A DNA stretch of 64,000 bases from an uncultured Acidobacteriota bacterium (GCA_963779415.1 CAVZYA010000001.1:516519-580518); one strand, 5' to 3'; positions 2,465-39,446 are shown, counted from the first letter of the stretch. Notes: generated by a model not told the origin, from the sequence alone. Program-made: numbers and translations.

Positions 2465-3991
2465 TCAGTGCTTCGACGTCTTCACGACCGGCTGGTCGGG
2501 GACGTCGATCTGCGCCTTCTGGATCTTTCCGGAGTAGTCGACGTAGATCGACTTCCACTCGGAAAAGACGTCGAGGCCCGCCGTGCCCGCCTCGCGGTGG
2601 CCGTTCCCCGTCTGCTTGATCCCGCCGAACGGAAGATGGGTCTCGGCCCCGATCGTCGGGAGGTTCACGTAGAAGATTCCGGCCTCGAGGTCCCGCATCG
2701 CCGTGAAGGCCTTGTTGACGTCCTGCGTGAAGATAGCCGAGGAGAGGCCGTAATCGCTGTCGTTCGCGACGTCGATCGCCTCCTCGAGGGACCCGACGGG
2801 GATCACGACAGTCACCGCCCCGAAGATCTCCTCGCGGGCGATCCTCATCTTCCGGTCCCCGTCGCCGAAGACGGTCGGCGAAAGGAACCATCCCCTGTCG
2901 AACGCCTTGCCCGTCAGTCGCCGTCCTCCCGCGACGAGCTTCGCCCCTTCGGCTTTTCCGATCGAGATGTAGTCGAGGACGGTGTCGAGCTGGCTCTCGT
3001 TGATGGCGGGGCCCATCTCGACGCTCTCGTCGAGGCCGCTCCCCACCTTCAGGGCCTTCGCCCGCTCGGCGAGAAGCTCCGTGAACTTCCTCGCGACCTT
3101 CCGGTGGACGAGGAGGCGCGAGGAGGCCGTGCACCGCTGTCCGCTCGTTCCGAAGGCCCCCCAGATCGCACCGTCCACGGCCAGCTCGAGGTTCGCGTCC
3201 TCAAGGACGATGATCGGGTTCTTCCCCCCCATCTCCAGGTGGACGTGCTTGAACGTGGGCGCGCAGGCCTCGTTGATCTTCTGCCCCACGGACGTCGAGC
3301 CGGTGAAGGAGATGACCTTCACGCGGGGATCCCTGATGATCGGGTTTCCGACCTTCGAGCCGCTCCCCGTGACGACGTTGAAGACCCCTTTCGGGAGGCC
3401 GGCTTCCTCGAGGGCCTGGGCGAAATGGATGACCGAATGCGGCGTGTCGGTGGCCGGCTTGATGACGATCGTGTTGCCGCAGATGAGCGCCGCCGTCGAC
3501 TTCCAGGCCGGGATCGCCATCGGGAAGTTCCACGGGGTGATGAAGCCGCAGACGCCGATCGGCGCACGGACCGACATCGCGAACTTGTCCGGCAGCTCGG
3601 AAGGAGTCGTCTGCCCGTGGAGCCGCCGCCCCTCGCCGGCCATCAGGAACGCCATGTCGATGGCCTCCTGCACGTCGCCGCGCGCCTCCTTCAGGACCTT
3701 CCCCATCTCGCGAGTCATCGCGCGTGCGTACTCCTCCTTCCGCTCCCGGAGGATCTGGCCGAGCCGGTAGAGGACCTCGCCCCGCTGCGGGCCCGGGACG
3801 AGCCGCCAGCTCCGGTAGGCTTCCGTCGCCGCGTCGACGGCATCTTTCACGTCACGCTCGTCCGAATCGGCGAAGCGTCCGATCAGGTCGGAGACGTCGG
3901 CCGGGTTACGGTTCTCGAAGGTCTTTCCCGAGCGGGCGCTGACCCACTCGCCTCCGATGAAGTTCCGGAGCACGGGAACGTTGCTCTTCAT
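2465..3991 (-). CDS. Aldehyde dehydrogenase family protein
   Basis: 508-aa ORF with [22 protein letters not shown] (catalytic Glu) and [10 protein letters not shown] (catalytic Cys). Confidence 0.92.
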
Positions 3992-4919: not shown

Positions 4920-6053
4920 ATGAAAGAAGTCAGAAAGTCGTTCTTCCGGTTCGTTCTTCCAGCCGCGATCGTCGTTACGATTCTGGTGGCCGCGGCGCCC
5001 GCAAACGCCCAGGCCATCCTCAAGGTCTCGGACACGGTGAACCTCAAGTTCGGCATCCTCATGCAGGGGTGGGCCGACTGGCAGCAGACCCAGGCGGCTG
5101 GGGAGACGAATGGCTACGCGCAGAACCTCTTCCTCCGCCGGATGCGCATCCTGATGGCCGGCCAGGTCGCGAAGGACGTCACGTTCTTCCTCGAGACGGA
5201 CGACCCCAACCTCGGCAAGGCCCCGAAGAATCTCTACAACGTCGCGGACACGGCGACTTCGCCGGGATTCATCATCCAGGACGCGTTCATGCAGTGGAAG
5301 ATCGCGAACGAGTTCATGATCCAGGGCGGCCTCATCCTGATCCCGCTCTGCCGCAACTGCAACACGAGCGCCGCCTCGCTGCTGACGCTCGACTATGGAT
5401 CCTTCTCCTTCCTCGAGAGCGCGACCACGCAGTCGGTCGTCGGCCGTGACACCGGCTTCCAGGCCGTGGGCTATCTCCTGAGCGATCGCCTCGAGTACCG
5501 GGCCGGCGCTTATCAGGGCTTCCGCACGGCCAACTCCCACAACTCGTTCCGCTTCACCGGACGCCTCCAGTACGACTTCCTCGACGTCGAGAAGGGGCAG
5601 TTCTACCCGGGCACCTACCTCGGGAAGAAGAAGGTCCTCGCGATCGGCGCCGGCTACGACACGCAGGGCGACTACAAGGCGTACGCCTTCGACGGCTTCC
5701 TCGATCTCCCGGTCGGAAAGGGGAACGGGCTCACTGTCGAGGCGGACTTCGTCCACTACGACGGCGGAACCTTCTTCACGACCATGTACAACCAGGACAC
5801 GGAGATGGTCCGGGCCGGCTTCTACTTCGGCGGCGTCAAGCTGATGCCGTTCCTCCAGTACGAGAACGAGTCGTTCAAGGACGACATCCGGAAGGTCCTG
5901 AACAGCAGGAACTTCCAGGCGGGCCTCGCCTACTATCCCTACGGCTACAACTTCAACATCAAGCTCGCGTACACCCTCCGCGAGAGGCCGAACGACCCCG
6001 TGACCGCGAACACGAACGAGTTCACGCTCCAGATGCAGCTTTTCTACTTCTGA
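4920..6053 (+). CDS. Outer-membrane porin (OprO/OprP-like beta-barrel)
   Basis: Signal peptide ..AAAPANAQA, an LRRMRILMAG motif, alternating amphipathic strands and a C-terminal ..LQMQLFYF (terminal Phe). A purine-rich SD tract lies directly upstream. Confidence 0.7.
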   Translation: MKEVRKSFFRFVLPAAIVVTILVAAAPANAQAILKVSDTVNLKFGILMQGWADWQQTQAAGETNGYAQNLFLRRMRILMAGQVAKDVTFFLETDDPNLGKAPKNLYNVADTATSPGFIIQDAFMQWKIANEFMIQGGLILIPLCRNCNTSAASLLTLDYGSFSFLESATTQSVVGRDTGFQAVGYLLSDRLEYRAGAYQGFRTANSHNSFRFTGRLQYDFLDVEKGQFYPGTYLGKKKVLAIGAGYDTQGDYKAYAFDGFLDLPVGKGNGLTVEADFVHYDGGTFFTTMYNQDTEMVRAGFYFGGVKLMPFLQYENESFKDDIRKVLNSRNFQAGLAYYPYGYNFNIKLAYTLRERPNDPVTANTNEFTLQMQLFYF

Positions 6054-6118
6054 CACGACGTTCAGACGTCTCGTCGATTCCTGTTCTTTCGATAAATCAC
6101 GGAGGATAAGGAGGCTTC

Positions 6119-7345
6119 ATGGCGGAGGAAAAGCTACCCAACCGATGGATCATGGTCGTCGCGGCGCTGGTGATGCAGATATGCCTCGGCATCCTGTACG
6201 CCTACAGCGTCGTCCGGGGGCCCCTGACGAAGGAGCTCGGCTATACCGTCAAGGAAACCGGATACCCACTCATGGCCTCGTTCTTCTTCTTCGCGGTCGG
6301 CATGATCGTGGCCGGCCGCTGGCAGGACAAGGCCGGGCCTCGAACGGTCGGGCTCTTCGGCGGCGTGCTCCTCGCGATCGGGGCTGCGGTTGCCGGTGCG
6401 ATGTACAAGGACCTGACCATGCTGGTCATCGGCTACGGGGTCCTCGGTGGCCTCGGCGTCGGGTTCGCCTACGTCACACCGATCGCAACGTGCATCAAGT
6501 GGTTCCCTGACAAGAGAGGCACGATCACCGGCCTCGCGGTCTTCGGGTTCGGCGCGGGGACTCTCGTATTCGGGCCGCTGCTCTCCAGCCTCATCGCCAG
6601 CAGCGGCATCGCCACCACCTTCTACACCGTGGCCGTCATCATGCTCGTCTTCGTCTGTGGCTCCGCGGCCGTCTTCAAGGTCCCGCCCGCGGGCTACAAG
6701 CCCGCCGGATGGAACCCGCCGGCGCCCGCGCCGGGCGCACAGGTGATCAAGACGAACTACCTGCCGAGCGAGATCATCAAGACCGGCTCGTTCTGGATCC
6801 TCTGGTTCACCTACTTCATCGGCGCGTCGGCCGGCCTGATGATCATCGGGCAGGCGGTTCCCATCGGCGTCCAGGTGGCCAAGCTCACCGCGGCGGTGGC
6901 CGCCGGCGGCCTCGGCGTCATGGCCCTCCTGAACGGCCTCGGGCGGCTCTTCTGGGGGAGCGTCTCCGACAAGCTGGGCCGGACGAAGACCGTCATCGTC
7001 ATGTTCGTCGTCTACATCCTGGCCTTCGTCTTCGTCCTCCCGAACAGCAATACGTTCATGCTCTGGCTCGTGGGCATCTGCGCGGTCGGCTTCGCTTACG
7101 GCGGATACCTCGCTCTGATGCCTTCGCTCACGGCCGACTACTTCGGCACGAAGTCGCTCGGGGCGAACTACGGCTACCTCTTCACCGCGTGGGGCGTGGC
7201 CGGCGTGGGTGGCCCCTTCATGATCGACTGGATCAAGACGGCGACAGGCGCCTTCACGAACGCGATGTACGTCACGGCGGCCGCCTGCGTCGTCGGAATT
7301 ATTCTCGCTGCGATCGCGAAGCCCCCGAAACCGGAGGCCGCATAG
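6119..7345 (+). CDS. MFS transporter, oxalate/formate antiporter (OFA) family
   Basis: 408 aa with about 12 hydrophobic segments. The N-terminus NRWIMVVAALVMQICLGILYAYSV and AGRWQDKAGPR are typical of OFA-family MFS proteins. Confidence 0.88.
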   Translation: MAEEKLPNRWIMVVAALVMQICLGILYAYSVVRGPLTKELGYTVKETGYPLMASFFFFAVGMIVAGRWQDKAGPRTVGLFGGVLLAIGAAVAGAMYKDLTMLVIGYGVLGGLGVGFAYVTPIATCIKWFPDKRGTITGLAVFGFGAGTLVFGPLLSSLIASSGIATTFYTVAVIMLVFVCGSAAVFKVPPAGYKPAGWNPPAPAPGAQVIKTNYLPSEIIKTGSFWILWFTYFIGASAGLMIIGQAVPIGVQVAKLTAAVAAGGLGVMALLNGLGRLFWGSVSDKLGRTKTVIVMFVVYILAFVFVLPNSNTFMLWLVGICAVGFAYGGYLALMPSLTADYFGTKSLGANYGYLFTAWGVAGVGGPFMIDWIKTATGAFTNAMYVTAAACVVGIILAAIAKPPKPEAA

Positions 7346-7466
7346 ACTTAGGAGAGAAACTCTCGTAAGTGATAAGCCCGCGGGGCCGGGAGTTCCGGGC
7401 CCGGCCTCGTGGGTCATCTCTCGCAAGGCACCGGATTCGCTCCGTCAGACTTAATAACGTGCCTTC

Positions 7467-8966
7467 ATGGAGGTCCAAAACATGGCGGAAAAAAGAAATG
7501 TCGAGATCAAGAGCCGACAGGACACGCTGGCTCTGATCACTCCAGAAATCAGGCCCTGGCCTGTCTCACCACCCCCTTCGCCGGAGGAAGTGAAGAAGTC
7601 CTACGCCAAGCGGAAAGCCGAGGTGTTCGGCCAGTGGCTCGAAGACAACATGCGTCTCGAGTATTCCTGGCAGAAACCCGAGGCCCTGCAGGGCCTGAAG
7701 GTCCTCGACATCGGGCTCTGGAGGCTGGGGCACAAGTTCGGCGCCTCCACGCTCGCGCAGGCCGGTGCCGAGGTGATCTGTATCGAGCCCCCCACGGGCG
7801 ACCCGCTCAGACAGCTGACCCCCTTCGGGCGGGAAGAGTACATGCTCGCCGACAAGGAAACCGGCGAGAAGTGCGGCCTCGGGTTCATCGACATACACCG
7901 GAACACGCACTCGGTCACCCTCAACGTCGAGACTCCGGAGGGGCAGGAGCTGTTCAAGAAGCTCGCGGTCCACGCCGACATCGTCCTTGACGGGATGCTC
8001 CCCGGCTACATGGACAACCTCGGGATCGGGTACCGGGACCTCTCCCAGATCAACTCCCGCCTCATCTACGTGAACGTCATGCTCCGGGGATCCTGGGGCC
8101 CGGCAAAAGACCGCGTCTCCAAGTTCGGCCAGTGGGAACTGGATCCCTTCGCGCAGGCGACCAATTCGTACATTCACAACACCGGCTTCGCTCAGGACGC
8201 GCTGCCGCGCGGCAAAGGGGGCGACCCGACCCGGGCCGGGTCGTGGCTCGCCGACTATGTCGCCGGCGAGCAGGCGGCCGTCAACGCCCTCGCGGCGATC
8301 TACTGGCGGGAAGAGGTCAGCAATGAGGGGCAGTTCATCGAGGTGACCGGCGCCGAGACCCTGATGGACATCCTCGACTTCGACATCTCCTGGTACGGCT
8401 TCAACGGCAGCATCAAGGCGCGGACAGGGGGATGGGACCCCAACCTGAACCAGTATGCGTGGAACCCGTGCCGGGACGGCTACATGATGATCGGCGGCCA
8501 GAGCGACCGGCTCTGGTACCGGATCGGCATGTGCATCGAGCGGGACTTCCCGCAGTTCGGCCGGCTCATCCACGAAGACCCCTTCCTGAAGGAAGTCGGC
8601 GCGCGGAACGCCCTCCACGCCCTCATCAAGACCTACACCGTCACGACGCGCTGGCTCCGGGAGACCAATCGGATCGAGGCCGAAGAGAAGCTGATGGACT
8701 ACGAGATCGCGGCCGGCCCGCTCCTCTTCATCGACGAGACCTGCGAGTTCCCCCACTTCAAGTACCGGCCCTGGGTCTACAACTGCGAGACGGACTACGG
8801 GACCGTCCTCTACTCGACGGTCAATAACGCCTATCAGATGAGGACGCCGCACCGGGTCAAGTGGCTCGGGAGACGGCTCGGCAAGGACAACTACGACGTC
8901 TACCAGCGCTGGGCCGGACTGGGCCCGAACAAGGTGGACCAGCTCAAGGGAAAGGGGGCGATCTAA
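7467..8966 (+). CDS. CoA-transferase family III (CaiB/BaiF/Frc-like), paralogue 1
   Basis: [39 protein letters not shown], plus an Asp-containing active-site region [20 protein letters not shown] second in-frame ATG at 7482 is an alternative start. Confidence 0.88.
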
Positions 8967-10354
8967 TGGCCGGCGAGATCAGACCCAAGAGTGCGGGCGA
9001 GCTGCATGAGATGCGGGCGCCCTACGAGGAGTTCTGCCGGAAGGCCTTCGATCCCGGCAACGAGCACTCGAAGCCCGAGTCGCTGAAGGGGATCCGGTGG
9101 CTCTCCTGCACGATGTACATCTTCACGCCCCACTCGGCCGCGAACCTGGCCGAGCTGGGCGCCGAGGTGATCAAGATCGAGATCCCCCGGATGGGCGACG
9201 CCATGCGGCACACCTCGCCCTTCAACGAGGCGTACCTCTATCCCCTCCACGACACCCGGCCGGGGACGGGAACCGGGTTCGGGTTCACGAACGCCAACCC
9301 GAACAAGCACTTCATCTCCCTCGACTATCACGTACCGGAGATGCGGGAAGTTTTCTACAACATGGTCCGGCAGAGCGACGGGCTGACCGAGCTCTACCGT
9401 CCCGGGACCTTTGACCGCTGGAAGATGAGCTACCCGACCCTCGCGCAGATCAACCCGCGGTTCATCTACGTCTGGGGCGGCGGGTTCGGCTACGGGCCGA
9501 AGGTCTTCGGGGGCTCCTATGACATCCTCGCGCAGTCCCACGCCGGGTTCGCGTCCATCACCGGAATGCACGACTTCATGGGCGGCCACTGCTCCAAGTC
9601 ATCCAACTGGGTCATGGACTGGGCCTCCGGCACCCTGATCACGTTCGGGATCCTCGCCTCCATTCTCTGGCGCCGGAAGACCGGCCTCGGCACCATGATC
9701 GAGTTCTCGCAGGTGCAGACCTCCACGATGTTCACCGAGTATGCCGTTCCTCTTTACGGCCGGTTCGGCATCGTCCGGCAGCGGTGGGGAAACTGGGACA
9801 CCCAGCTCTGCGCCCACGGGATCATCCTTTGCGGCAAATCCGACTTCCCCGATGCCCAAAACCCGCAGGACAAGTTTGACGCCCGGTACGTCATGGTCTC
9901 CGCCTTCCAGGATGCGGACTTCAAGGAACTCTGCAACGTCGTCGGCCGGAAAGACATCTACGATAAATACAAAACGCACAAGGACCGGCTCGACCCCCGG
10001 GCCCAGGTCGACATCTACCAGGCGCTCGAGAAATGGGCCGGAGACAAGACCCGGGCGGCGGTGGTCAAGGTCCTGACCGACGCCGGCATCCTCGCCTCCC
10101 CCGTCATGAACGACCGGGAAGTCTACGAGTACGAGCACTACCGCGAGCGGGGCACCGTCCGCTGGATCGACGACCCCCTCTTCGGCGACTTCCTCCTGCA
10201 GGCCGGCTACAGCGCCGGCCACCTGGCCAAGACCCCGAGAAGGACGAACTGGATCTGGCGGCCCGTTGGCGCCGACAATGTCAAGATCTACCGGGATCTG
10301 CTCGGCTATCCACTGAGCAAGATCGAGGAGTGGTATGGCAAGGCCTACATCTAA
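8966..10354 (+). CDS. CoA-transferase family III (CaiB/BaiF/Frc-like), paralogue 2
   Basis: ORF 8861..10354 trimmed to ATG 8966 (TAATG junction with the upstream stop). Motifs [42 protein letters not shown] and [19 protein letters not shown]. Confidence 0.88.
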
Positions 10355-10368
10355 AAGGAGGCAGCGCC

Positions 10369-10854
10369 GTGTGTGACATCATCTGGTGCAAGAAGCAGGT
10401 TTCCGGCAAGACGTGCAACACCGTCAATTACCTGGACCCGTACAACTTCTGGAACTGGGAAGGCAAGGTGAACTGCGCCGAGTGCGGGACCGTCTACGCC
10501 ATCCACATGATCCAGGGCTTCATGTACAAGGGGCCAACGGAGAAACCCGGAGAGAAGCCCGACATGAGTCCCCTCTACGCCGACAAGCCGCTGGAGGGCT
10601 ACCGGTGTTACCTTCCCGGGATCGAGGGCAGGACGAGGCCTTGGCAGTGCCTCCCCCGACATATCTACCTCGGCCACGCGGACACGGTGAAGTGGAGCCT
10701 CCGCGGAAGACCCGTGCGTGGCTGGCGTCCTCAGCCGAAGTCTGCAGGCATCGCTGGAAGCTTCGGCCACAAGTGGGATATCGAGAAACTCTCACCGGAG
10801 ATCTGGGCCGAATACCAGGAGAAGCTGAAGAGCGGGAAGCTGAAGGACTGGTGA
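10369..10854 (+). CDS. Hypothetical protein with an N-terminal Cys cluster (zinc-ribbon-like)
   Basis: ORF 10033..10854 trimmed to GTG 10369, just downstream of AAGGAGG. The product starts VCDIIWCKKQVSGKTC..(18)..CAEC. No family recognised. Confidence 0.6.
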   Translation: MCDIIWCKKQVSGKTCNTVNYLDPYNFWNWEGKVNCAECGTVYAIHMIQGFMYKGPTEKPGEKPDMSPLYADKPLEGYRCYLPGIEGRTRPWQCLPRHIYLGHADTVKWSLRGRPVRGWRPQPKSAGIAGSFGHKWDIEKLSPEIWAEYQEKLKSGKLKDW

Positions 10855-10876
10855 GACATTCAGAAAGGAGCGCCAC

Positions 10877-11137
10877 ATGGCCGAGGGAAAACAGTTAACG
10901 CCTGAAGAATTCCTGGCTACGGTTCTCGTGCCGCAGTATGGCCGGGAAAGCGGGCACATGTGCTGGGATTGCAAGCACTTCAAACCGGTTCTGAAGGGCT
11001 CCAAGTTCCCGCCCACCGACACGATCGGCTGGTGCACGCAGATCCACTGGCCCTTCTACTGGTGCGTGACGGACTTCAACGTCGTCAAGAAGTGCTACGC
11101 CTTCGAGAAGGGCATTTACACCTTCAAGAAGTTCTGA
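10877..11137 (+). CDS. Small Cys-rich hypothetical protein (possible Fe-S or Zn protein)
   Basis: 86 aa, with GAAAGGAG 6 nt upstream. Cys pattern CWDC-x20-C-x9-C-x9-C. Confidence 0.65.
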   Translation: MAEGKQLTPEEFLATVLVPQYGRESGHMCWDCKHFKPVLKGSKFPPTDTIGWCTQIHWPFYWCVTDFNVVKKCYAFEKGIYTFKKF

Positions 11138-11138
11138 C

Positions 11139-11432
11139 ATGGAGGAGAACGTCCGGAAGGAGCTGGATACGCTCACGGGGATGGTGCTGACCTGGAAGAA
11201 GGACTATCTCGGGTCGGTATCATCCGATGAGGACTGCGAGTACCTCGCTCGGGAATTCCTGGACGAGGTGGAGACCCACGTCTACCCCTACGTGAGGAGG
11301 CTCATGGAATGCAATTTCCTCACGGGACCGGAGGCGACGGAGTTTCTCGACTCCTGCTATCGCCAGGCAGAGGAGCTGAACAAAGCCATCCAGCAGCCGG
11401 ACGCCAAACAGGGTGAAACGATAGGAGGGTAA
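11139..11432 (+). CDS. Hypothetical protein (acidic, probably helical)
   Basis: 97 aa. The ATG lies 1 nt after the upstream stop, and G/C at codon position 3 is high. No family recognised. Confidence 0.6.
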   Translation: MEENVRKELDTLTGMVLTWKKDYLGSVSSDEDCEYLAREFLDEVETHVYPYVRRLMECNFLTGPEATEFLDSCYRQAEELNKAIQQPDAKQGETIGG

Positions 11433-11434
11433 AC

Positions 11435-11854
11435 ATGGCTGAGAAATGCCGAGTGGGGGTCTGCGGGTACGACCCCGTTCTGGTGAAGGGATACGTCAAG
11501 ACAGGCGAGCGAGCCCTCTGGTGGCACCTGTCGGACGAGGTGTACGAACAATACCAGGTGAAGCCGGGTGACACCGTCACCGGGAAGATCCTGGCGGTTT
11601 ACGACGGGACCGGCACGAAGACGGCCTCCCCGAACGAGCCCTTCGAGTGGAAGTGCCCGAAGGAGTCGGGCCTGGCGGTCCTCCTGCCGCCTGCGACCAT
11701 CGTCAAGTTCAAGCTCTCCGCTTTCCATTTCCTCGAGCTGCTCGTGGAGAAGGTCGGCGGAAAGGACGTCTATCCCGGCAAGGAGCAGATGAGCTTGAAA
11801 TGGTGGCCCGAAGAGAGGATGAAGCTCGACTACAAGGTGCCTTACATCGAGTAG
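11435..11854 (+). CDS. Hypothetical protein
   Basis: 139 aa. AGGAGGG lies 5 nt upstream and the ATG is 2 nt after the upstream stop. N-terminal CRVGVC. No family recognised. Confidence 0.65.
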   Translation: MAEKCRVGVCGYDPVLVKGYVKTGERALWWHLSDEVYEQYQVKPGDTVTGKILAVYDGTGTKTASPNEPFEWKCPKESGLAVLLPPATIVKFKLSAFHFLELLVEKVGGKDVYPGKEQMSLKWWPEERMKLDYKVPYIE

Positions 11855-11948
11855 AACACAGGACGCTCTCTCCCCCGCTCCCTTGAAGCGCCGGTTCCGT
11901 TCGGACCGGCGGGCAAGGACCGGGCGGGGCGAAATCAGTCGCTCACGG

Positions 11949-11993
11949 CCCCCTCTCCTGGCCCTGAAGCACCAGGAGAGGGGGATTCTTTTT
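11949..11993 (+). terminator. Rho-independent terminator closing the CoA-transferase operon
   Basis: Perfect 13-bp stem ccccctctcctgg (11949-11961) / ccaggagaggggg (11972-11984) with a 10-nt loop, followed by attcttttt. Confidence 0.75.
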
Positions 11994-12048
11994 CATGTAT
12001 CCTCGGCGATGGAACGGTGACATTCGATCGGAAGGGAGAATCGCGTAC

Positions 12049-12291
12049 ATGACAGAACACGACAAGCCGAATGAAGAGGGCTACACGGCTCCGGCGTACG
12101 TCGACCCGGCGATGGGCGACAGCCCCCCCGTCGGAGGCCTGATTGACAACGAGGCCGTCTGCCGGGACTGCATGACCGCCGCCGAGGAAGTCAGCATGCG
12201 GCGCGGGTTTGTCGACCCCGTCTCCGAGCAGCAGGCCAAGGCGAAGGGGACCGTCTGCGCCCGGTGCGGCAAGAAACTCGTCGCCGCGTAG
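12049..12291 (+). CDS. Small zinc-ribbon-like protein (two CxxC knuckles)
   Basis: ORF 11995..12291 trimmed to ATG 12049, which has GGAAGGGAGAA just upstream. 80 aa with CRDC-x29-CARC. Confidence 0.55.
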   Translation: MTEHDKPNEEGYTAPAYVDPAMGDSPPVGGLIDNEAVCRDCMTAAEEVSMRRGFVDPVSEQQAKAKGTVCARCGKKLVAA

Positions 12292-12334
12292 CGCCCCCTT
12301 CAATCCAGCCGGACGGGGCGGGCGGAATCACCTC

Positions 12335-12748
12335 ATGGCAGAGCCGGAAAAGGCCCCACGACGAGAGGTCGTCGAGCAGCTCCTGCCGCTCGTGGTGGAG
12401 TTGATTCCAGGGCAGGCGGCTGAAGGCCTGATCGAAGTGCTCGAGCCGGGCAGCTACGAGGCCCATTCCCTCCGGACGCTTTGCGAGAATCTCCTCAGGA
12501 GAACGAACTGGAGCGTGGAGGAGCAGCAGGTCCTGGAGGACATCAGGAGACAGCTCGACGGGGGCCGGCTCCTCTGCCGGGGCCGACCCGTCGACGGCCG
12601 GGCTCTGGATCTCGCGGTGGTCGAGGAAACCGAAGCAGGCGAGAAGTATCTCTATGTGCCTGTCCACGCCATCAGGCCGCAGGAAGGCGGAGGCGCGGCA
12701 CCCCGGATCGCGCACCAAAGTTCAGCAGACGAGAGCAGGAGCCTATGA
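12335..12748 (+). CDS. Hypothetical protein
   Basis: ORF 12209..12748 trimmed to ATG 12335. Codon-position-3 G/C is high on the + strand, and the antisense ORF 12191..12718 looks compositional. No family recognised. Confidence 0.55.
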   Translation: MAEPEKAPRREVVEQLLPLVVELIPGQAAEGLIEVLEPGSYEAHSLRTLCENLLRRTNWSVEEQQVLEDIRRQLDGGRLLCRGRPVDGRALDLAVVEETEAGEKYLYVPVHAIRPQEGGGAAPRIAHQSSADESRSL

Positions 12749-12951
12749 GTTCCAGGTTCGTAGTCACGGAGAGCACCACGGTGGACGATGTTGCCGCGGC
12801 GGGCCGGCCCGACCCCCTCTACTGCAAACTCGGCCTGGGCCAGCAGGCCCGCGTCCTCGCGGACGAGATCGATGCCGCGCTTGGTGGGGATACGAGCTGC
12901 GGGGGCGCCGGACTCGGATATGTTCCGGACATCGTAGAGGTTGAAGAATAG
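12745..12951 (+). CDS. Small acidic-tailed hypothetical protein (candidate modifier or adaptor)
   Basis: ATG 12745 overlaps the upstream stop (ATGA). 68 aa: MSSRFVVTES..VLADEIDAALGGDTSCGGAGLGYVPDIVEVEE. Confidence 0.45.
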   Translation: MSSRFVVTESTTVDDVAAAGRPDPLYCKLGLGQQARVLADEIDAALGGDTSCGGAGLGYVPDIVEVEE

Positions 12952-12964
12952 CCTGGAGAATCGC

Positions 12965-13159
12965 GTGGAGATAGAGGCTCCCAAGGACTGGGACCCGAAG
13001 TGCCCAAAGTGCCAGGAAGAGCTTCGACGAATGCTCGAGCTGTCACAGTCGGTCTACGAGGACCTCGACCACGGCGCGGGGTTGTACCGGTTGCCGTTGC
13101 CACCTTGCACGCACCATGCGGCGCAGGGCGAGCACAAAGACGCAGGAGGGGTCGCTTGA
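12965..13159 (+). CDS. Small Cys/His protein ending ..DAGG-VA (candidate Ubl/sulfur-carrier-type modifier precursor)
   Basis: The track ORF starts at TTG 12941, but I prefer GTG 12965 (GGAG 6 nt upstream). 64 aa with CPKC-x32-CTHH and C-terminus EHKDAGGVA. Codon position 3 is mostly G/C. Confidence 0.45.
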   Translation: MEIEAPKDWDPKCPKCQEELRRMLELSQSVYEDLDHGAGLYRLPLPPCTHHAAQGEHKDAGGVA

Positions 13160-13199
13160 CAGACCCACTTGTGGCTTTCCGGCCGTCGGGCGCCCCGGC

Positions 13200-14411
13200 A
13201 TGATGGATCTGCTGGAGTCCGACCTGGAGCTCGTCGTCCGGTCAGGATTCATCTACCTGCCGCTCCTCTTTGATCCTTCGGTGGCGACGGAGATCGAGGG
13301 GAACGTGGGCAATCACCTGGTCGCCCGGGACGCCGGCAGGCATTTCGTTCGGACGATGAGCCTGCGATCGCTCGTTTCAAGCTACGAGGCTCTCTGGCCG
13401 AAGTCGTACGAGAAGTTGCGGCGGTCGAAGCTGTGCCGGTTCTCCGGGGACCTTTCGCCGGCCGAAACGGGCGCCAGCGAGCGGCTGAAGGAGATCCTCT
13501 TCTCCGTCATGCCGCACTTCGTCAGGAGGGGGAAGCGGCTCGACAGGAGGCGGCTGACCGAGGAGGACGTGCTGGACCTCATCGAGGAGAGAACCGGACT
13601 TCCCGGCGGATACGCCATGGCTGCAGCCAGCGCTCGGGATCCGGGCTCCATCCGGCAGATCCTCGTGGAACTCGAGGAACGCCGCCCGGCGGCCGAGCCG
13701 CTGCCCGAGGGCCGAATGTCTGCGCGGACCCTCGCGGATTGGCTTCTGCGCGCCCAGGAAGCCCGGATTCTGGAAGAGGAGAGCCAGCGACTGACGGGGT
13801 TTCTCTCCGCGCAGGAGGGCCTCGATACGAGGGCGGCCAGGCGGCTGGCGATTTTGCGGTGCGTCGCGGAGAAGGGGACGTTGGAAATCGACGGATTCGG
13901 CTTTCTGAGGACAGGACCCGGCGACGACTACGTGATCTACAAGCGCACCGGCGAGTTCGCTCTCAAGGACTACTACGGTCGGCTCTATCTGTTTCCGGAT
14001 TGCCGGGTTGCCGTGTCGACGGCCGCTGGCCTCAGGCCCTTCGTCGTGGAGACCTACAAGCATCCGTTTCTCGAGGCCCACGACTCCGGCCAGGAGATCT
14101 GCCTGGGCCGCACCACGGCGCGCCGCTTCTCCGGAGCGGCGGCGATCGTCGAGGCTCTGCAGGAGGGAATCAACGCCCTGCTCCATGGCTACAGCAGCCG
14201 GCGCCGAAACGGGTACCACAGACTGGAGGGACTGTTGAGGTCGGTCCGGCTCCCTGGCCCGGACGATCCCGGCTACCCGGAACCGCCGGACGACAGGCCC
14301 CGCTCCAAGCGGCACATCCTGGACGTCGACTTCGACGACTACCGCATCCCGGCCGATCACCCCGGGATCGTGTCGGGTCGGGTCGAGATCACCAACGACG
14401 TCGTGCCGTGA
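13200..14411 (+). CDS. Unknown protein with a putative UBC/E2-like C-terminal domain
   Basis: ORF 13116..14411 trimmed to ATG 13200, since the upstream gene ends at 13159. The C-terminal part reads DDYVIYKRTGEFALKDYYGRLYLFPDCRVAV..LRPFVVETYKHPFLEAHDSGQEICLGRT, which parallels the E2 core (..HPN..G.ICL..). The N-terminal ~230 aa are unassigned. Confidence 0.6.
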   Translation: MMDLLESDLELVVRSGFIYLPLLFDPSVATEIEGNVGNHLVARDAGRHFVRTMSLRSLVSSYEALWPKSYEKLRRSKLCRFSGDLSPAETGASERLKEILFSVMPHFVRRGKRLDRRRLTEEDVLDLIEERTGLPGGYAMAAASARDPGSIRQILVELEERRPAAEPLPEGRMSARTLADWLLRAQEARILEEESQRLTGFLSAQEGLDTRAARRLAILRCVAEKGTLEIDGFGFLRTGPGDDYVIYKRTGEFALKDYYGRLYLFPDCRVAVSTAAGLRPFVVETYKHPFLEAHDSGQEICLGRTTARRFSGAAAIVEALQEGINALLHGYSSRRRNGYHRLEGLLRSVRLPGPDDPGYPEPPDDRPRSKRHILDVDFDDYRIPADHPGIVSGRVEITNDVVP

Positions 14412-14884
14412 TGACGACGGACGACACCCTCTCGCGGGACGAGCCGCCCCGGGCGACGCCGGATCTGTTGCGGGACATAAGAACCATGCGCGCCGGCAGG
14501 CGGCGGAAGGAGCCCTTTCGGACGAGCCTCTACTCCCGGGTCGGGGGTCTGGTGAGGCGATATGGCCTGGACGAGGCGTTCCTCCGGGCGCTCGACTCCC
14601 CGGGCGGCTTCTCCCGGGACGGCCGTCCGGATGCCGTCCGGCCGAAGGGGAAAGCGCCCTATGCTCCTCCCCTCTTTTTCCTTTCCACGGAGAGAGAGCA
14701 CCGCGTGACGACGGTCATCCTGGAGAAAGTGAAGAGCCCGTTCCTCGCGTACGCCACGTCGCCCGACGAGATTCTCCTCTGCGAACGCCTGTTCCGTGAG
14801 GACCCGTCCCTTTCTCAGGAAACGCTCGCGTGCCATCATTTCGAGACGTTGATGCCGGCCGGAGCGGATTCCGGGCCGGGCTGA
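14411..14884 (+). CDS. Hypothetical protein
   Basis: ATG 14411 shares 1 nt with the upstream TGA (TGATG). 157 aa. No family recognised. Confidence 0.6.
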   Translation: MTTDDTLSRDEPPRATPDLLRDIRTMRAGRRRKEPFRTSLYSRVGGLVRRYGLDEAFLRALDSPGGFSRDGRPDAVRPKGKAPYAPPLFFLSTEREHRVTTVILEKVKSPFLAYATSPDEILLCERLFREDPSLSQETLACHHFETLMPAGADSGPG

Positions 14885-14899
14885 GGCGGGAGGAGAGTC

Positions 14900-16000
14900 G
14901 TGGAACGGATTTCGCCGCAACGCCGCCGGGAGATCGGGGAGAGAGTCGGCGCATTCCGCGAGAGCCAGGTCGGCGACGCCGTCAATCAGATTCTCGAGTT
15001 CGACAAGACGCCGGCCGACCTCAAGGCCTACATGGACCGGTTCGTCATCGGCCAGGAGCAGGGGAAGAAGATCATCTCCGTCGGCATCGCCTACCATTAC
15101 CGGAGGCTCGCGGCGGCCCTCAGGCGCGCCGTCGTCGAGAACGGCGAGGAGCTGGGCGCCGCCTTGCACGGCGCGGCCACGCCGAAGGCCAACATCCTGA
15201 TCGTGGGGCCCCCCGGCTGCGGGAAGACCTACACGGGCGAGGTCGCCTCCCGGCTCGTGGGGGTGCCGTTCGCCGTGGAGGACCTGACGAAGTTCAGCGA
15301 AACGGGCTACGTGGGCCAGAACGTGAGCGACATCCTCCTGGACCTGCTGATCGCGGCCGGCGGCAACCCCCAGGTGGCCCAGATGGGCATCGTCTACCTG
15401 GACGAGATCGACAAGATCGCCGCCGAGCCGATCGTCTCGAAGGACGTGTCGGGGCGCGGGGTCCAGAAGGGGCTCCTCAAGCTCGTCGAGGGGGCCGAGA
15501 ACACCATCGACCTGGGCCAAGAACGGATCTCCCTTTCCACCCGACACGTCCTGTTCATCGCAGGAGGCGTGTTCGAGGGGCTGGAAGGAACCGTCGGAAA
15601 GCGGATGGAAAGGGATCGTCTCGAAGGCGAGTGGAAGGACCACCTCCTCACGGACGACTTCGTCGGCTGCGGGATGGAGCGGCAGCTCATGGGGAGGTTC
15701 CCCGTTCGGGCCGTCTACGACCCGCTCAGCGTCGAAGACCTCAAGAACATCCTGCTCGAGAGCGAGGAGAGTCCGTCCCGCGCCTACATCGACGACCTGA
15801 AGGCGTGGAACATCGAACTCCGGTTCACGGACGGCGCTCTCACGGAGGTCGCGAGGCGCGCGCAGCAGGATCGGACGGGCGCCCGGGGACTCATCGGCAT
15901 CCTCCACAAGGTGCTTCTGGAGGACATGTACCGGCTTCCGGGCGTCCACACCGGCGAGCTGGTGGTGGACGAGAAGTACATCCGGGAGCGGCTCGGGTGA
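14900..16000 (+). CDS. ClpX/HslU-family AAA+ ATPase (minimal, with no zinc-binding N-domain and no IGF loop)
   Basis: GTG start after GGAGGAGAG. Motifs [27 protein letters not shown], Walker A GPPGCGKT, pore-1 loop ETGYVGQN, Walker [28 protein letters not shown] and sensor-2 TGARGL. Confidence 0.88.
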
Positions 16001-16803
16001 GATTCCGGGGGCTCTCGGAGCTGAAGCGCGCGCCATGCTTCGAGGCTCCCGTGGGAACCCTGCCGGAGTGGATCCGGATGACGCGTCACTCCCTCGCGAA
16101 GGCCTTCAAGATCAACGAGCTCGTCCGGTCCGTCCACGGGGACAGCTACGAGTGGTACGGATTCACCGTCGCCGAGCGGAGCGATCCGGAGCTGGTCGTG
16201 GACGTTCTTCTTCCGGCCAACGACGAGAACTTCACGGACCACACCCGCGTCGCACCCGAGGCGATCGACGCGTCGAGAGAGTCCCTCCCCCGGGATCGGG
16301 TGATCAACGGCTGGATCCACTCCCACGGGGCCCTGCCGTACGAAGGGTTCTCCTTCGTGGACGAGAGGAACCAGGAGGCCGTGACCGATTACGTGAACAC
16401 GCTTCTCAGGAAGCCGGTGGCCAAGAAGGAGATCCTGATCAGGGACCTCGCGATCCTCGTCGAGGGCCGCTTCTCGGAGAAGGAGCTGGAGCAGGGAAGC
16501 GTCGCGCTCATCACCGACGCCCCCGTCAAGGAGGCCCGGATCATCGAGACCATATACGGAAGCTTCTGCTTCGCCATCGTCATCGGCGACGACGGCTGGC
16601 ACAGGCAGCAGGTCCATTACCGCAGGCGGGGCATCCTTTCCGGGCAGACGACCGAGGAGAGCCGGGACACCGACATCGTCCTTTCGGGCGACGCGCGGCC
16701 GCTCACCGAGGCGGAGATCCAGATGCTGGCGGACGAGGTCCGCACCCGGATCCGGCCGGGCGTGGCCGTTCCACCCGAGCGGTTCGAGCGGGAGGCGACA
16801 TAA
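15997..16803 (+). CDS. JAB/MPN (JAMM) metalloprotease-domain protein
   Basis: JAMM signature: Glu in SYEWYGF, then [18 protein letters not shown] (HxH..S..D). The start is either GTG 15997 (GTGA overlap with the ATPase stop) or ATG 16078. The ~100-aa C-terminal extension is unassigned. Confidence 0.8.
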
Positions 16804-16840
16804 GGTCGGCGGCGGCCTGGGGCGAAGGGACGCGATCGGC

Positions 16841-18118
16841 ATGGAGACGGGACCGGCTCGCGAGAAGGCGCATGACCCGAGGCTGGACCGCCAGCTCCGG
16901 ATCCCGAACTGGAACCAGCGGGCCCTCGAGGAGGCGCGGCTCGCCGTCTTCGGCGACGACGACCTTCTCGCCTCGCTCTACGTCCTCTCCGCCGCGGCCC
17001 TCGGCGTGAACGACGTCGTCCTGATCGCGCCCGCCTGGAATGAGAAGCTGATCGAAATCGCCCGCCAGCTCAATCCGAGGCTCAGGCTGGCCCTCCTCGA
17101 GGGGCTCCACACCCACCCGGTCCTGGAGGAGCTCTTCAGGCCCTGCACGGCCATCGTGGACCTCACCCGCTACGCTCTGGCCAACAAGCTTCTGCTGGAG
17201 ACGGGCTACCGGTCGGGAATTCCGGTGATCCGTGGGTTCTGCCTCGAGAAAGACGGGTGGGAAGGGCTCTCCGTCTTCACCTACAGGCGCGGCCGGGAGT
17301 GGGAGGAGCTCCGGGAGCTCGTCTCGCCCTCCAATCTTCCCTGCGACCACTTCGACGACGCGATTCTGGCCCTCGTCGCGGCCGGCATCGCCCTGGAAGA
17401 AACCAAGAACGTCATCATGGGACACCGGGTGTCGGAGGAGCTGATCGGCTACAGGCGGCCGAAGGTGGTTCCCCTGGAGCCCGACTCCGGCGTCATCATC
17501 GTCGGCGCCGGCGCCCTGGGTAACTTCGTCGGGCTCGGACTGGCCTGTACGGGGCTCCGGCGAATCACGGTCGTCGATCCCGACGTGGTGGACGTGACTA
17601 ACCTCAACAGGCAGGTGCTCCTGGCCGGCGGCGTAGGCCGAAGCAAGGCCGAGGTCCTCTGCGAGCGCCTGCACTCCCTCTTCGGAATCCGGGCGGAGGC
17701 CCGGGTGGCTTATTTCCGGAAGGACTCCGAGCTCGACGCCTCCGACGCTGTCTTCGATTGCGTGGACAACTTCGAGACCCGGGTGATCCTGAGTGAGAGG
17801 TGCCGGGAAGAGGGAAAGGTGCTCATCAGCGGCGGCACGGGCCCTCAGGCCGGACAGGTCATCGTGTTCGATCCGGCGCGCCCGAGCGAAACGCCCGCGG
17901 AGGTTCTGGGACTCTACGAAATCGTCGAGAGGCGGGAGATCGACGCCTTCCGGAGGGAGACGGCGTCCTGCGCCTACCAGCCCGATCCGTCCGTCGTCAT
18001 GACGAATCAGATTATCGGAGGATTGATGGCCGATTCCTATCGTAGGCTCCTGGCCGGAGAGGAGACCCCGAATATCTTCTACGATTCGAGGAACGACGCC
18101 CGGATCTTCGGGGGGTGA
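16841..18118 (+). CDS. E1-like ThiF/MoeB/HesA-family adenylyltransferase with tandem (degenerate + active) Rossmann domains
   Basis: The active domain has VIIVGAGALGNFVGLGLACTGLRRITVVDPDVVDVTNLNRQVL and a Cys in RETASCAYQPDPSVVMTNQIIGG. The N-terminal half repeats the fold outline (LDRQLRIPNWNQRALEEARLAVFGDDDLLASLYVLSAAALGV) but lacks GxGxxG. Confidence 0.88.
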   Translation: METGPAREKAHDPRLDRQLRIPNWNQRALEEARLAVFGDDDLLASLYVLSAAALGVNDVVLIAPAWNEKLIEIARQLNPRLRLALLEGLHTHPVLEELFRPCTAIVDLTRYALANKLLLETGYRSGIPVIRGFCLEKDGWEGLSVFTYRRGREWEELRELVSPSNLPCDHFDDAILALVAAGIALEETKNVIMGHRVSEELIGYRRPKVVPLEPDSGVIIVGAGALGNFVGLGLACTGLRRITVVDPDVVDVTNLNRQVLLAGGVGRSKAEVLCERLHSLFGIRAEARVAYFRKDSELDASDAVFDCVDNFETRVILSERCREEGKVLISGGTGPQAGQVIVFDPARPSETPAEVLGLYEIVERREIDAFRRETASCAYQPDPSVVMTNQIIGGLMADSYRRLLAGEETPNIFYDSRNDARIFGG

Positions 18119-18191
18119 TAGAGTCGCGGCGAATTGCGTCCTGACGTGATGCGACGGCGAAAGGCCGCGGATCAGGGCCGAAGGAGCCGAG

Positions 18192-19415
18192 ATGAGCAGC
18201 GAGAACGACGTCGCGCAGACTCAGGAGGACCAGCCGATCGGCTGGCAGCGCCTCGGCGACGTCCTGACACCGCCGATTCCCGGCTTCGAGGACCTCCTCT
18301 TCCTTCCGAGCCTCGACAATCAGTCCTCCAACATCTACGTCCTGCCGGGGGACTGCGTAACGATCGTGGACCCGGGGAACGATTACACGGCCTTAATGGA
18401 GCTCTTCCCTGCGAGAGCCAGGCCCGAGGACGTCAGGAAGATCGTCCTGACGCACGGGCATTTCGACCACGCCATGGGGGCGCTCGAGTTCCTCAGGACG
18501 TATCCGGATCGCCCCACGGGCGCGCGCATCGAGCTGATCCTCCACGAAGGGGGTCCCGACCAGTTCAAGCAGACGGCGAGGGAGCAGGGCGCCTCCGTGA
18601 CCGAGGTACGGGGCGGGGAGACTCTCGAGCTGAGCGGCCTTTCCTTCGACGTGATCTACACGCCAGGCCATACCATCGACGGCATCGCCCTCTATCACGC
18701 CCCCTCGAGGACCGTCTTCAGCGGCGACGTCGTGCTGCCGCTCGCGGTAGCCGGACCCGATCCCAAGGCCGGGGGAAGCCTGGACCAGTACCTGTTCGGG
18801 CTGAGGGCGTTGCTCGCGAGGGAGATCGAGAACGTCCTCCCGGGCCACGGCCCCGTCGTCGGCCCGGGCGGGAGGAAGGTCATCGAGCAGACCTACGAGG
18901 CCGTCATGATGAAGCTCCTGGGGGTCGAGAAGCCGATCCCGTGGATCCAGGGTGCCATTCAGCTCGCGGAGCGCGGGCTGCTGGAAGAGGCCGTTTTCTG
19001 CGCCGGGAAAGAGCTGGCCCGCGACCCGGGGCACGCCAAGGCCCTCGAGCTCAAGGCCGTGTGCCTCAACGATCTCGGGCGGTCGTCTGAGGCCCTCGAG
19101 GTCCTGGATCGGCTGCAGGAGCTGCAGGCCGGCGACGATGCGTTCATCCACGTCGGCAGGGGATATGCCCTCATGGGGCTTGGCCAGTTCGAGGAGAGCG
19201 TCAAGTGCTTCGACGCCGCTCTCCGCATCACGCCGGGCCTGAGGGACGCGCTCGTCTACAAGGGGATGGCCCTCCATCTCTCGGGGAACCACGAGGAGGC
19301 CATGGACATCGAGCCCTTCAGGACGGAGTTCATGGGGCGGTTCCGGAGCGAGCTGCTCAAGGCGTCGCGGCCCGCCCCGAAGGATGGCCTCGCCGAAGGC
19401 ACTGGAAAGGCCTGA
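18192..19415 (+). CDS. Metallo-beta-lactamase-fold hydrolase fused to TPR repeats
   Basis: AAGGAG lies 5 nt upstream. Motif VLTHGHFDH (HxHxDH) and TPGHT. The C-terminal ~150 aa are TPR-like helical repeats (..AKALELKAVCLNDLGRSSEALEVLDRL..). Confidence 0.85.
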   Translation: MSSENDVAQTQEDQPIGWQRLGDVLTPPIPGFEDLLFLPSLDNQSSNIYVLPGDCVTIVDPGNDYTALMELFPARARPEDVRKIVLTHGHFDHAMGALEFLRTYPDRPTGARIELILHEGGPDQFKQTAREQGASVTEVRGGETLELSGLSFDVIYTPGHTIDGIALYHAPSRTVFSGDVVLPLAVAGPDPKAGGSLDQYLFGLRALLAREIENVLPGHGPVVGPGGRKVIEQTYEAVMMKLLGVEKPIPWIQGAIQLAERGLLEEAVFCAGKELARDPGHAKALELKAVCLNDLGRSSEALEVLDRLQELQAGDDAFIHVGRGYALMGLGQFEESVKCFDAALRITPGLRDALVYKGMALHLSGNHEEAMDIEPFRTEFMGRFRSELLKASRPAPKDGLAEGTGKA

Positions 19416-19540
19416 AAAAAGACTTCGAGATCCCGGGGCCAAGGGATAGACTCGCTCGCGTTTCACCCCAGATTCCGACCGCGGCCCGCGTCGCCGGCCT
19501 CTCCCGGCGAGCCGGGCAAGAGACAGGAGGAGACGTCGCC

Positions 19541-39430: not shown

Positions 39431-39446
39431 TGGCACGTTGATTGCC
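39431..39446 (+). promoter_or_regulatory. Sigma-54 (-24/-12) promoter
   Basis: TGGCAC-gttga-TTGC matches TGGCAC-N5-TTGC exactly. It lies 43 bp upstream of ATG 39489 and is divergent from a sigma-54 activator gene. Confidence 0.7.

Follow-up and report, generated by a model that had tools for sequence, protein, structure and literature searches.

Introduction

Family-III coenzyme A (CoA) transferases act through a catalytic aspartate, equivalent to Asp169 of Frc, which forms an acyl-aspartyl anhydride and an Asp-CoA thioester. The heteromeric family-III transferases BbsEF and SmtAB are not known to need further subunits. FldABC and DddD link a family-III CoA-transferase, by physical association or covalent fusion, with another reaction on the CoA thioester, and CoA is recycled; FldBC are large HAD-type iron-sulphur (Fe-S) proteins that depend on an activator, and DddD consists of one chain with tandem domains. 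Citrate lyase and malonate decarboxylase combine a family-II transferase with a lyase or decarboxylase and a small carrier, where the transferase reloads the cleaved thioester, a ligase primes the system, and the prosthetic group bound to the acyl carrier protein requires CitG/CitX-type genes. In addition, zinc-ribbon and barrel scaffolds of the DUF35/ChsH2 type serve CoA-ester enzymes such as BbsA and the archaeal thiolase/HMG-CoA synthase complex. In this study, we analysed a 64,000-nucleotide (nt) stretch of DNA from an uncultured Acidobacteriota bacterium (GCA_963779415.1 CAVZYA010000001.1:516519-580518; hereafter the window), in which a porin-like gene (g1), a transporter gene (g2), two family-III CoA-transferase genes (g3 and g4) and four genes for small orphan proteins (g5 to g8) lie in one row between positions 4920 and 11854. 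We found that g3-g8 is a single inherited, co-regulated unit and forms the core of a self-contained module.

The module shares with BbsEF (PDB 9fn0) the arrangement of two adjacent, divergent family-III paralogues, from which a heteromer is expected, with g4 resembling chain B and g3 chain A. However, the match is distant (~98 bits), g3 and g4 carry 40-70 extra N-terminal residues, and no bbs beta-oxidation genes lie near the module. Unlike FldABC and DddD, the module has as partners of its transferases four orphan proteins of 86-161 residues. As in the DUF35/ChsH2 systems, a small zinc ribbon (g5) and a beta-barrel (g8) stand beside CoA-thioester enzymes, but here ribbon and barrel are on separate proteins, the partner is a transferase and not a thiolase, the g8 barrel resembles PhS018/flavin-type barrels and not an OB fold, and no g5 match reaches the Pfam threshold. 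From citrate lyase and malonate decarboxylase the module differs in its transferase family, and no CitG/CitX-type genes were found in the census of its neighbours. The bbs operon is not known to contain a counterpart of the four linked small subunits or of the metallo-beta-lactamase-fold/TPR (MBL-TPR) protein that usually accompanies the module. No description of the six-gene module was found in the literature searched, although absence there is no proof.

Our best explanation overall, to which we give even chances, is one multi-subunit enzyme, in which g5-g8 would be subunits on a BbsEF-like transferase and which would work as a coupled lyase or decarboxylase.

Conservation of the module

The genes g3-g4-g5-g6-g7-g8 have identical order and strand in 80 genome loci fetched by a g5-seeded search, order being judged wherever the contig allows. 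Because this search was g5-seeded, it was repeated with a g4 seed in metagenome contigs; 34 of the 38 loci obtained extend past g4, and in all 34 the next gene is g5, followed by g6, usually g7, and then g8. All six genes are under purifying selection, with ratios of nonsynonymous to synonymous substitution rates (dN/dS) between the window and an orthologue of ~0.05-0.25 for g3, g4, g5, g6 and g8 (for g6, ~0.04-0.2 in most comparisons) and 0.12-0.48 for g7. The pairwise distance matrices of the components correlate (r 0.53-0.90), and the most conserved component is g5, its mean p-distance of 0.20 being lower than those of g4 (0.23) and g3 (0.28). Conserved order, selection and correlated distances together indicate that the small open reading frames (ORFs) are real genes, as constrained as the enzymes, and inherited together with them.

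An earlier reading of this DNA, made without database searches (the sequence-only reading), had proposed an eight-gene operon. The eight ORFs do lie on one strand with tight junctions (TAATG at 8964-8968, a gap of 1 nt at 11137/11139 and of 2 nt at 11432/11435), and within g3-g8 all junctions are overlaps or gaps of 1-22 nt. But the conserved unit is g3-g8; g1 and g2 are missing from essentially all other loci, so of the proposed eight-gene order only the part from g3 to g8 is kept. Downstream of homologous transferase pairs, a point on which that reading had staked itself, the small ORFs are kept and are lost only at or below ~40% identity.

The limits of the module can be followed among more distant relatives. 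A 46% variant keeps a g5-like gene together with a protein whose N-terminus is weakly g6-like, and a 44% relative of g4 keeps a g3-like partner and a convergent MBL-TPR gene. The 40% relative is a solitary transferase in a beta-oxidation context without the small genes, and the 35% relatives are fused tandem proteins in unrelated contexts. A g4 scan of 1.84 billion representatives gave only 154 matches at E up to 1e-30.

These data bear on the alternative that the pair is an ordinary heteromeric transferase of the BbsEF or SmtAB type, and that g5-g8 are separate regulatory, chaperone or metal-handling passengers. Such an alternative is in line with those heteromers, which are not known to need extra subunits, with the lack of a recognised catalytic fold in the small proteins, and with the variability of g7. 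However, the linkage holds without exception across phyla and domains, conservation is higher in g5 than in the transferases themselves, the junctions suggest translational coupling, and the small genes vanish together with the clade, being absent beside the 40% solitary transferase. We consider passengers unlikely, albeit the least unlikely of the alternatives weighed here, and continue to prefer small proteins that are subunits of one enzyme.

In a scan of one genome per species, g5 relatives were found in at least 282 species-level genomes, from many bacterial phyla and three archaeal lineages. According to the record labels, the bacterial hosts include Syntrophobacteraceae, Desulfobacterales, Desulfobaccales, Terriglobia/Acidobacteria, Methylomirabilota, Anaerolineae, Binatia, Margulisiibacteriota, Deferrimicrobiaceae, and Sulfurifustaceae, and most module hosts are anaerobes. 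Identity across phyla is 65-87%. The module is also carried by five cultured thermophiles (Desulfacinum infernum, Desulfacinum hydrothermale, Desulfosoma caldarium, Thermodesulforhabdus norvegica, and Thermosulfidibacter takaii), so the question of its function is directly testable.

The archaeal hosts are metagenome-assembled genomes (MAGs) of Thermoplasmata, Methanocellales and Archaeoglobi, where the gene order is rearranged but the genes are still adjacent. In the two Thermoplasmata loci (L086 and L087), g4-g3 is divergent from g5-g8-MBL, and IS605 OrfB and IS66 transposases lie on the flanks; the Methanocellales locus (L082) has g8 and the MBL-TPR gene on the other strand. Adjacency despite rearrangement, along with the flanking transposases, argues for transfer as a block and suggests that the Thermoplasmata copies are a recent horizontal acquisition.

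In a separate observation, some MAGs contain two or three module copies on separate contigs (MFD09779.bin.3.209 with L065, L073 and L075; MFD01872.bin.1.196 with L014 and L027). Some of these copies are divergent, which may reflect paralogous specificities or duplication by binning or assembly.

The CoA-transferase pair

The two transferase genes, g3 (7467-8966, 499 residues) and g4 (8966-10354, 462 residues), lie on the + strand and overlap by one base. For g3, a start at ATG 7482 is likelier than one at 7467, considering that GGAGG precedes this ATG and that orthologue alignments start at residues 4-8. Both proteins match PF02515 far above its cut-off of 23.3 bits (g3, 206.5 bits, residues 74-474, 8.7e-61; g4, 235.4 bits, residues 40-430, 1.4e-69), and with 27% identity to each other they are distant paralogues. 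Thus, the two paralogous family-III CoA-transferases of the sequence-only reading are genuine. Its remark that both are longer than expected also holds: they exceed the 366 positions of the PF02515 model because of N- and C-terminal extensions.

The best PDB match of g4 is 9fn0_B, a chain of benzylsuccinate CoA-transferase BbsEF (1.5e-27). Matches of g3 include 4ed9, 10uh, 9br7, and the other BbsEF chain 9fn0_A (6.8e-17), which is a better match than 9fn0_B. From these matches, the core of the module is predicted to be a heteromeric family-III CoA-transferase of the BbsEF type. The neighbour census contained no dehydrogenase, hydratase or thiolase set as would be expected of a benzylsuccinate beta-oxidation context (bbsABCDGH).

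In support of the sequence-only reading, the transferases fall outside any characterised equivalog: NCBIfam cut-offs for the characterised family-III equivalogs are 442-750 bits, and the best scores here are 118-144 bits. An identity as Frc/YfdW (TIGR03253/NF003809, cut-offs 504/442) was rejected at 87 bits for g3 and 136-141 bits for g4. The equivalogs for mesaconate, glutarate, oxalate (YfdE), CaiB and Mct were rejected likewise, the best of them being NF041294 (118 bits for g3 and 144 for g4, cut-off 700).

The two paralogues differ in how strictly they keep the catalytic aspartate. In g4, Asp218, which aligns with the Asp of the formyl-CoA:oxalate transferase 3ubm, is unchanged in all 98 orthologues, and g4 retains its V-x-K-I-E...G-D...R CoA-binding segment in full. 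In g3, whose orthologues are 65-94% identical, Asp263 is present in the window, but 7 of 81 orthologues have Ser at this position. These seven form one clade with WLPSY for WLADY (loci L005, L011, L023, L032, L069, L072, and L076), in which the other module genes are all retained. The replacement by Ser indicates that this Asp is dispensable in g3. Since the Asp is invariant in g4 and lost throughout one clade in g3, g4 is likely to be the catalytic subunit of the pair, and g3 is probably a non-catalytic, auxiliary or structural partner.

Alternatively, g3 and g4 may have given up intermolecular CoA transfer and, like DddD, Mct or AMACR, use the family-III fold for a lyase, isomerase or racemase reaction. 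The g4 relatives that come next after the orthologues include many tandem two-domain family-III proteins of ~800 residues, which is the architecture of DddD, and the ability of g3 to lose its Asp would also fit. However, g4 keeps both its Asp and the complete CoA-binding segment, and the tandem proteins match no specific equivalog and are only 26-30% identical to g4. We regard this as the least probable of the alternatives, and keep to a BbsEF-like transferase as the basis of the proposed multi-subunit enzyme. Naming the tandem relatives DddD was not possible, as the profile library searched has no DddD model.

The four small proteins

The small proteins are encoded on the + strand directly after g4: g5 (10369-10854, 161 residues), g6 (10877-11137, 86 residues), g7 (11139-11432, 97 residues), and g8 (11435-11854, 139 residues). 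The GTG start of g5 at 10369 sits 7 nt 3' of AAAGGAGG, and its frame is that of the ORF 10033-10854; a 170-residue ORF at 10386 was rejected as g5 for being in the wrong frame. None of the four proteins has a Pfam or NCBIfam match, and PDB profile searches with g5, g6 and g8 returned nothing. When single members were searched against Pfam with E up to 5, nothing but weak traces of zinc ribbons and rubredoxin appeared. In g5, g6 and g8, cysteines are fully or almost fully conserved.

The most conserved of these proteins, g5, has 117 close homologues, all of which are called 'hypothetical' or are unnamed. It combines a Cys4 zinc-ribbon pattern (C7, C16, C36, and C39) with a long, conserved Arg/Pro/Gly-rich tail, and its AlphaFold2 model (predicted local distance difference test score, pLDDT, of 80.7) has no solved fold relative. 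The weak memberwise matches of g5 are to zinc ribbons, those of the ChsH2/DUF35 type included, but membership of zf-ChsH2 (PF12172) stays below threshold, with matches from 4 of 21 homologues (best E 0.017) and none from the window protein.

The g6 protein is a candidate metal-binding protein of the Cys4(+His) kind: the 77 orthologues all keep H27, C29, C32, C53 and C73, and 90% of them keep H57. It has no significant Pfam or PDB relative, and its sole trace is a weak rubredoxin-like match. The small acidic protein g7 has orthologues of 29-80% identity, and C73 is the only invariant residue among its Cys and His. The model of g8 shows a beta-barrel with good confidence (pLDDT 86.5); its closest structures are PhS018 and 2d9r, with flavin-binding barrels next.

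Metal-binding residues and a barrel of this kind would also suit a redox or dehydratase enzyme, in which g5 and g6 would carry Fe-S, g8 would carry flavin, and a CoA thioester such as lactoyl-CoA would be reduced, oxidised or dehydrated by analogy with FldABC and lactoyl-CoA dehydratase. The four invariant Cys plus His of g6, the mostly anaerobic hosts and the SfMCT-like transporter g2 are consistent with this, as is the precedent of FldABC, where a family-III transferase is part of a dehydratase complex. Against it, the neighbour census contained no activator ATPase, ferredoxin or Etf partner, the top structural matches of g8 are functionally uncharacterised barrels and g8 shows no identifiable flavin motif, and the Cys pattern of g5 is that of a classic zinc ribbon. 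In addition, some host labels (Methylomirabilis, Sulfurifustaceae, Binatia, and Terriglobia) are not obviously those of strict anaerobes. Such a redox enzyme is unlikely in our view, and we place it behind passengers and well behind a transferase-coupled lyase or decarboxylase.

Partner genes and regulation

The sequence-only reading confined its gene set to g1-g8 and thereby omitted an MBL-TPR gene, a sigma-54 activator and a lone receiver protein. Usually, the full module consists of the sigma-54 activator, g3-g8, and the MBL-TPR hydrolase, sometimes with the lone receiver.

Clustering of flanking ORFs showed that an MBL-TPR orthologue begins ~0.2 kb 3' of g8 in 62 of 81 loci, and this gene still adjoins the module in the archaeal loci and in the 44% variant. 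In the window it lies at 18192-19415 (+), 6.3 kb downstream of g8 and behind a terminator and an inserted cassette. Its product matches Lactamase_B of Pfam (5.7e-24) and TPR, has the motif HGHFDH (HxHxDH), and shares 50-66% identity with the copies located after g8 in nine metagenome loci (65-66% with those of L092 and L095). The nearest PDB relatives are LACTB2 and glyoxalase II (1e-10 to 1e-11), and against GloB (TIGR03413) it scores 45 bits, with a cut-off of 200.8.

The sigma-54 activator (PAS-PAS-GAF-AAA+-HTH) lies directly upstream of the module on the same strand in 33 of the 49 loci with enough upstream DNA. NCBIfam matched only the AAA+ core of these activators and gave no clue to the inducer. 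With a relaxed -12 pattern (TTGT/TTGC), 23 of 85 loci showed a -24/-12 element at a distance of 245-580 nt upstream from g3 (background, 0.02 per 650 nt), and that of Thermodesulforhabdus norvegica has the canonical form. A strict sigma-54 consensus gave almost nothing upstream of g3. The lone receiver-domain protein, of ~140 residues, is encoded downstream in at least 28 loci. No Rfam family was found in the window or in seven other loci, so there is no riboswitch clue.

Two further observations concern regulatory sequences. In loci L017, L018, L025, L029, L035, L051, L054, L056, L069, L076, and others, the long leader that follows the sigma-54 promoter contains a perfect Shine-Dalgarno-like AAAGGAGGTGA, complementary to the 3' end of 16S rRNA, at ~170-190 nt before g3; the window is without it. 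Neither a conserved small ORF after AAAGGAGGTGA nor an Rfam family was found there, and the sequence may serve to stabilise the mRNA or as a standby element. The window itself has a perfect sigma-54 promoter consensus, TGGCACGTTGATTGC, at 39431-39445 (+). It adjoins a divergent sigma-54 activator gene (37944-39278, -), whose product is 46% identical to the module-linked activators over the AAA+ region and which is unrelated to the module in the window.

Beyond these partners, a Pfam census of the 109 nearest other neighbours revealed no recurrent metabolic partner. In the window, a gene for an AMP-forming acyl-CoA synthetase (Pfam AMP-binding, 2e-70) follows the MBL-TPR gene at 19550-21214 (+, start approximate) and has no NCBIfam equivalog above cut-off. 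Orthologues with 41-61% identity lie near the module in L024, L028, L038, L040, L045, L060, and L086, and in Thermodesulforhabdus norvegica a 30% relative is found two genes after the MBL-TPR gene.

As a side observation, three loci from Desulfosoma and Desulfacinum (L084, L085, and L130) have genes for an aldehyde:ferredoxin oxidoreductase and an Fe-alcohol dehydrogenase ~2-6 kb downstream, accompanied in L085 and L130 by a histidine kinase and a sigma-54 response regulator of their own. The window contains a gene for a non-acylating aldehyde dehydrogenase at 2465-3991 (-), whose link to these oxidoreductase neighbours elsewhere is possibly coincidental.

Porin and transporter

The two genes upstream of the module, g1 (4920-6053, +, 377 residues) and g2 (6119-7345, +, 408 residues), are window-specific accessories outside the conserved module. 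The g1 protein resembles an outer-membrane beta-barrel porin, with a signal-peptide-like N-terminus and the C-terminal ...LFYF, but at 121.5 bits it stays under the cut-off of 150 of NCBIfam porin_ExtI. It has no counterpart in the other loci screened (g5-seeded genome loci and g4-seeded metagenome loci), and a g2-like gene is found near the module elsewhere only in L052 (37%) and L072 (33%).

The sequence-only reading had taken g2 for an OFA oxalate/formate transporter. This assignment gives way to another: g2, a major facilitator superfamily (MFS) protein, passes the equivalog of the Syntrophobacter fumaroxidans L-lactate transporter SfMCT (NF049980, 412.9 bits, cut-off 320) and matches SfMCT structure 6g9x at 1.2e-63, whereas it fails OxlT (TIGR04259, 175 bits, cut-off 335), so that an OxlT identity is ruled out. 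Six ligand-site residues have been described for SfMCT (PDB 6g9x/6hcl; PMC6573034), of which g2 retains four (Y119, N276, R280, and Y331); in contrast to SfMCT, it has F for L145 and L for F335. Considering that a porin and an SfMCT-type carrier are joined to the module here, the local substrate in this organism is probably an imported small (hydroxy)monocarboxylate, as judged from transporter likeness.

The transporter also bears on the model that the sequence-only reading had put forward, oxalate/formate-type uptake followed by CoA activation, with an OFA antiporter, a Frc-like transferase, and small proteins in place of oxalyl-CoA decarboxylase. Like the Frc/YfdW-OxlT-oxalyl-CoA decarboxylase system, the locus has a family-III transferase with a conserved Asp nucleophile beside an OFA-related MFS carrier. 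Indeed, g2 is within the OFA/SLC16-like MFS group (TIGR00890, 241 bits; OxlT structure 8hpj, 1.6e-39), both transferases give partial Frc matches, and a decarboxylating cycle would be compatible with a self-contained module. No thiamine diphosphate (ThDP) decarboxylase was found within 4920-21214, the only part of the window screened for one, which both fits a replacement of this enzyme and distinguishes the locus from the Frc/OxlT system. However, the carrier is of the SfMCT type, and oxalate hardly competed with lactate uptake by SfMCT (PMC6573034). Neither g1 nor g2 is conserved with the module, and the Frc models score only 87-141 bits, far under their cut-offs of 442-504. An oxalate pathway is thus improbable in our judgement, and we rank it below a redox enzyme. 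In the preferred multi-subunit enzyme, the transporter would be a local addition to a module that occurs without it elsewhere.

Proposed mechanism

In our proposal, g5-g8 would be stoichiometric subunits on g3/g4, contributing a zinc ribbon, a Cys4-His metal site, a small acidic protein, and a beta-barrel. Together they would either provide a second active site, dependent on metal, or act as scaffold or channel for the CoA thioester that g4 produces. Such a complex would be a CoA-transferase-coupled lyase or decarboxylase that recycles acyl-CoA in catalytic amounts: product-CoA and an incoming acid would give substrate-CoA, from which product-CoA and a released fragment would be formed. In such a cycle, citrate lyase, DddD and FldABC regenerate the primer acyl-CoA. 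Here, the AMP-forming acyl-CoA ligase could supply acyl-CoA as primer, and the MBL-TPR protein would most plausibly hydrolyse a thioester, thereby clearing wrong or dead-end acyl-CoA; alternatively, it may open a lactone or ester form of the substrate. A recycling cycle would explain both the lack of regularly linked metabolic genes and the occasional adjacent ligase.

Several points weigh against this proposal. No catalytic fold was recognised in g5-g8 by Pfam, NCBIfam, PDB profile searches or structure comparison, so the second active site is pure inference, and the sequence cannot separate Zn from Fe-S. The least conserved component is g7, which was undetected in the Methanocellales locus and in some Desulfobacterales loci. 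Furthermore, the MBL-TPR gene is not beside some modules, for example on the contig that encodes g5 of Thermosulfidibacter takaii, a linked ligase occurs only in a minority of loci (eight), and the transporter clue is confined to this window.

A bolder proposal, which we hold to be doubtful, is a new multi-subunit class in which four orphan subunits, some of them metal-binding, are permanent partners of a family-III heterodimer and perform a second reaction on the CoA thioester held by the enzyme, for example C-C cleavage, decarboxylation or a different conversion, and which has spread horizontally among anaerobic bacteria and archaea. If true, the module would be the counterpart, built on family III, of citrate lyase or malonate decarboxylase, acting on a common but unrecognised small substrate. 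Its components are annotated only as 'CoA transferase' or 'hypothetical protein'. The cross-phylum identity, the sigma-54 control and the multiple copies suggest an inducible catabolic role that matters ecologically in anoxic soils, sediments and groundwater. Should the small subunits contribute chemistry, the module would represent a novel enzyme architecture and might supply a step so far missing from anaerobic carbon turnover.

Transcript boundaries and the inserted cassette

The g3-g8 array ends at an intrinsic terminator (11949-11993, +), and the strong terminator noted by the sequence-only reading is indeed present as a perfect 13-bp stem with a U-tract (stem 11949-11984, then AUUCUUUUU; folding free energy -28.9 kcal/mol, z -3.6). 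At the other end, the 121-nt spacer between g2 and g3 (7346-7466, +) is strongly structured, with a 15-bp GC hairpin and no U-tract (-57.1 kcal/mol, z -4.6; none of 200 shuffles folds equally well). Because of this stable fold, one g1-g8 transcript is plausible only, and the spacer may be a processing, stability or attenuation element between the transporter and enzyme genes.

Between the terminator after g8 and the MBL-TPR gene, the window contains a 6.3-kb cassette (11995-18118). It encodes a 98-residue CxxC...CxxC protein, the product of a 137-residue ORF, a 431-residue protein without a Pfam match, and a ClpX-like AAA+ ATPase (258 bits, under the cut-off of 359). These are joined by a 234-residue stretch without a Pfam match, in which a JAMM-like HSH-x8-S-xx-D motif can be seen by eye, and, as the last gene, by a ThiF/E1-like protein (PADLOC 'E1-E2', 6.7e-16). 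From its gene content, the cassette looks like a ubiquitin-like conjugation or defence set.

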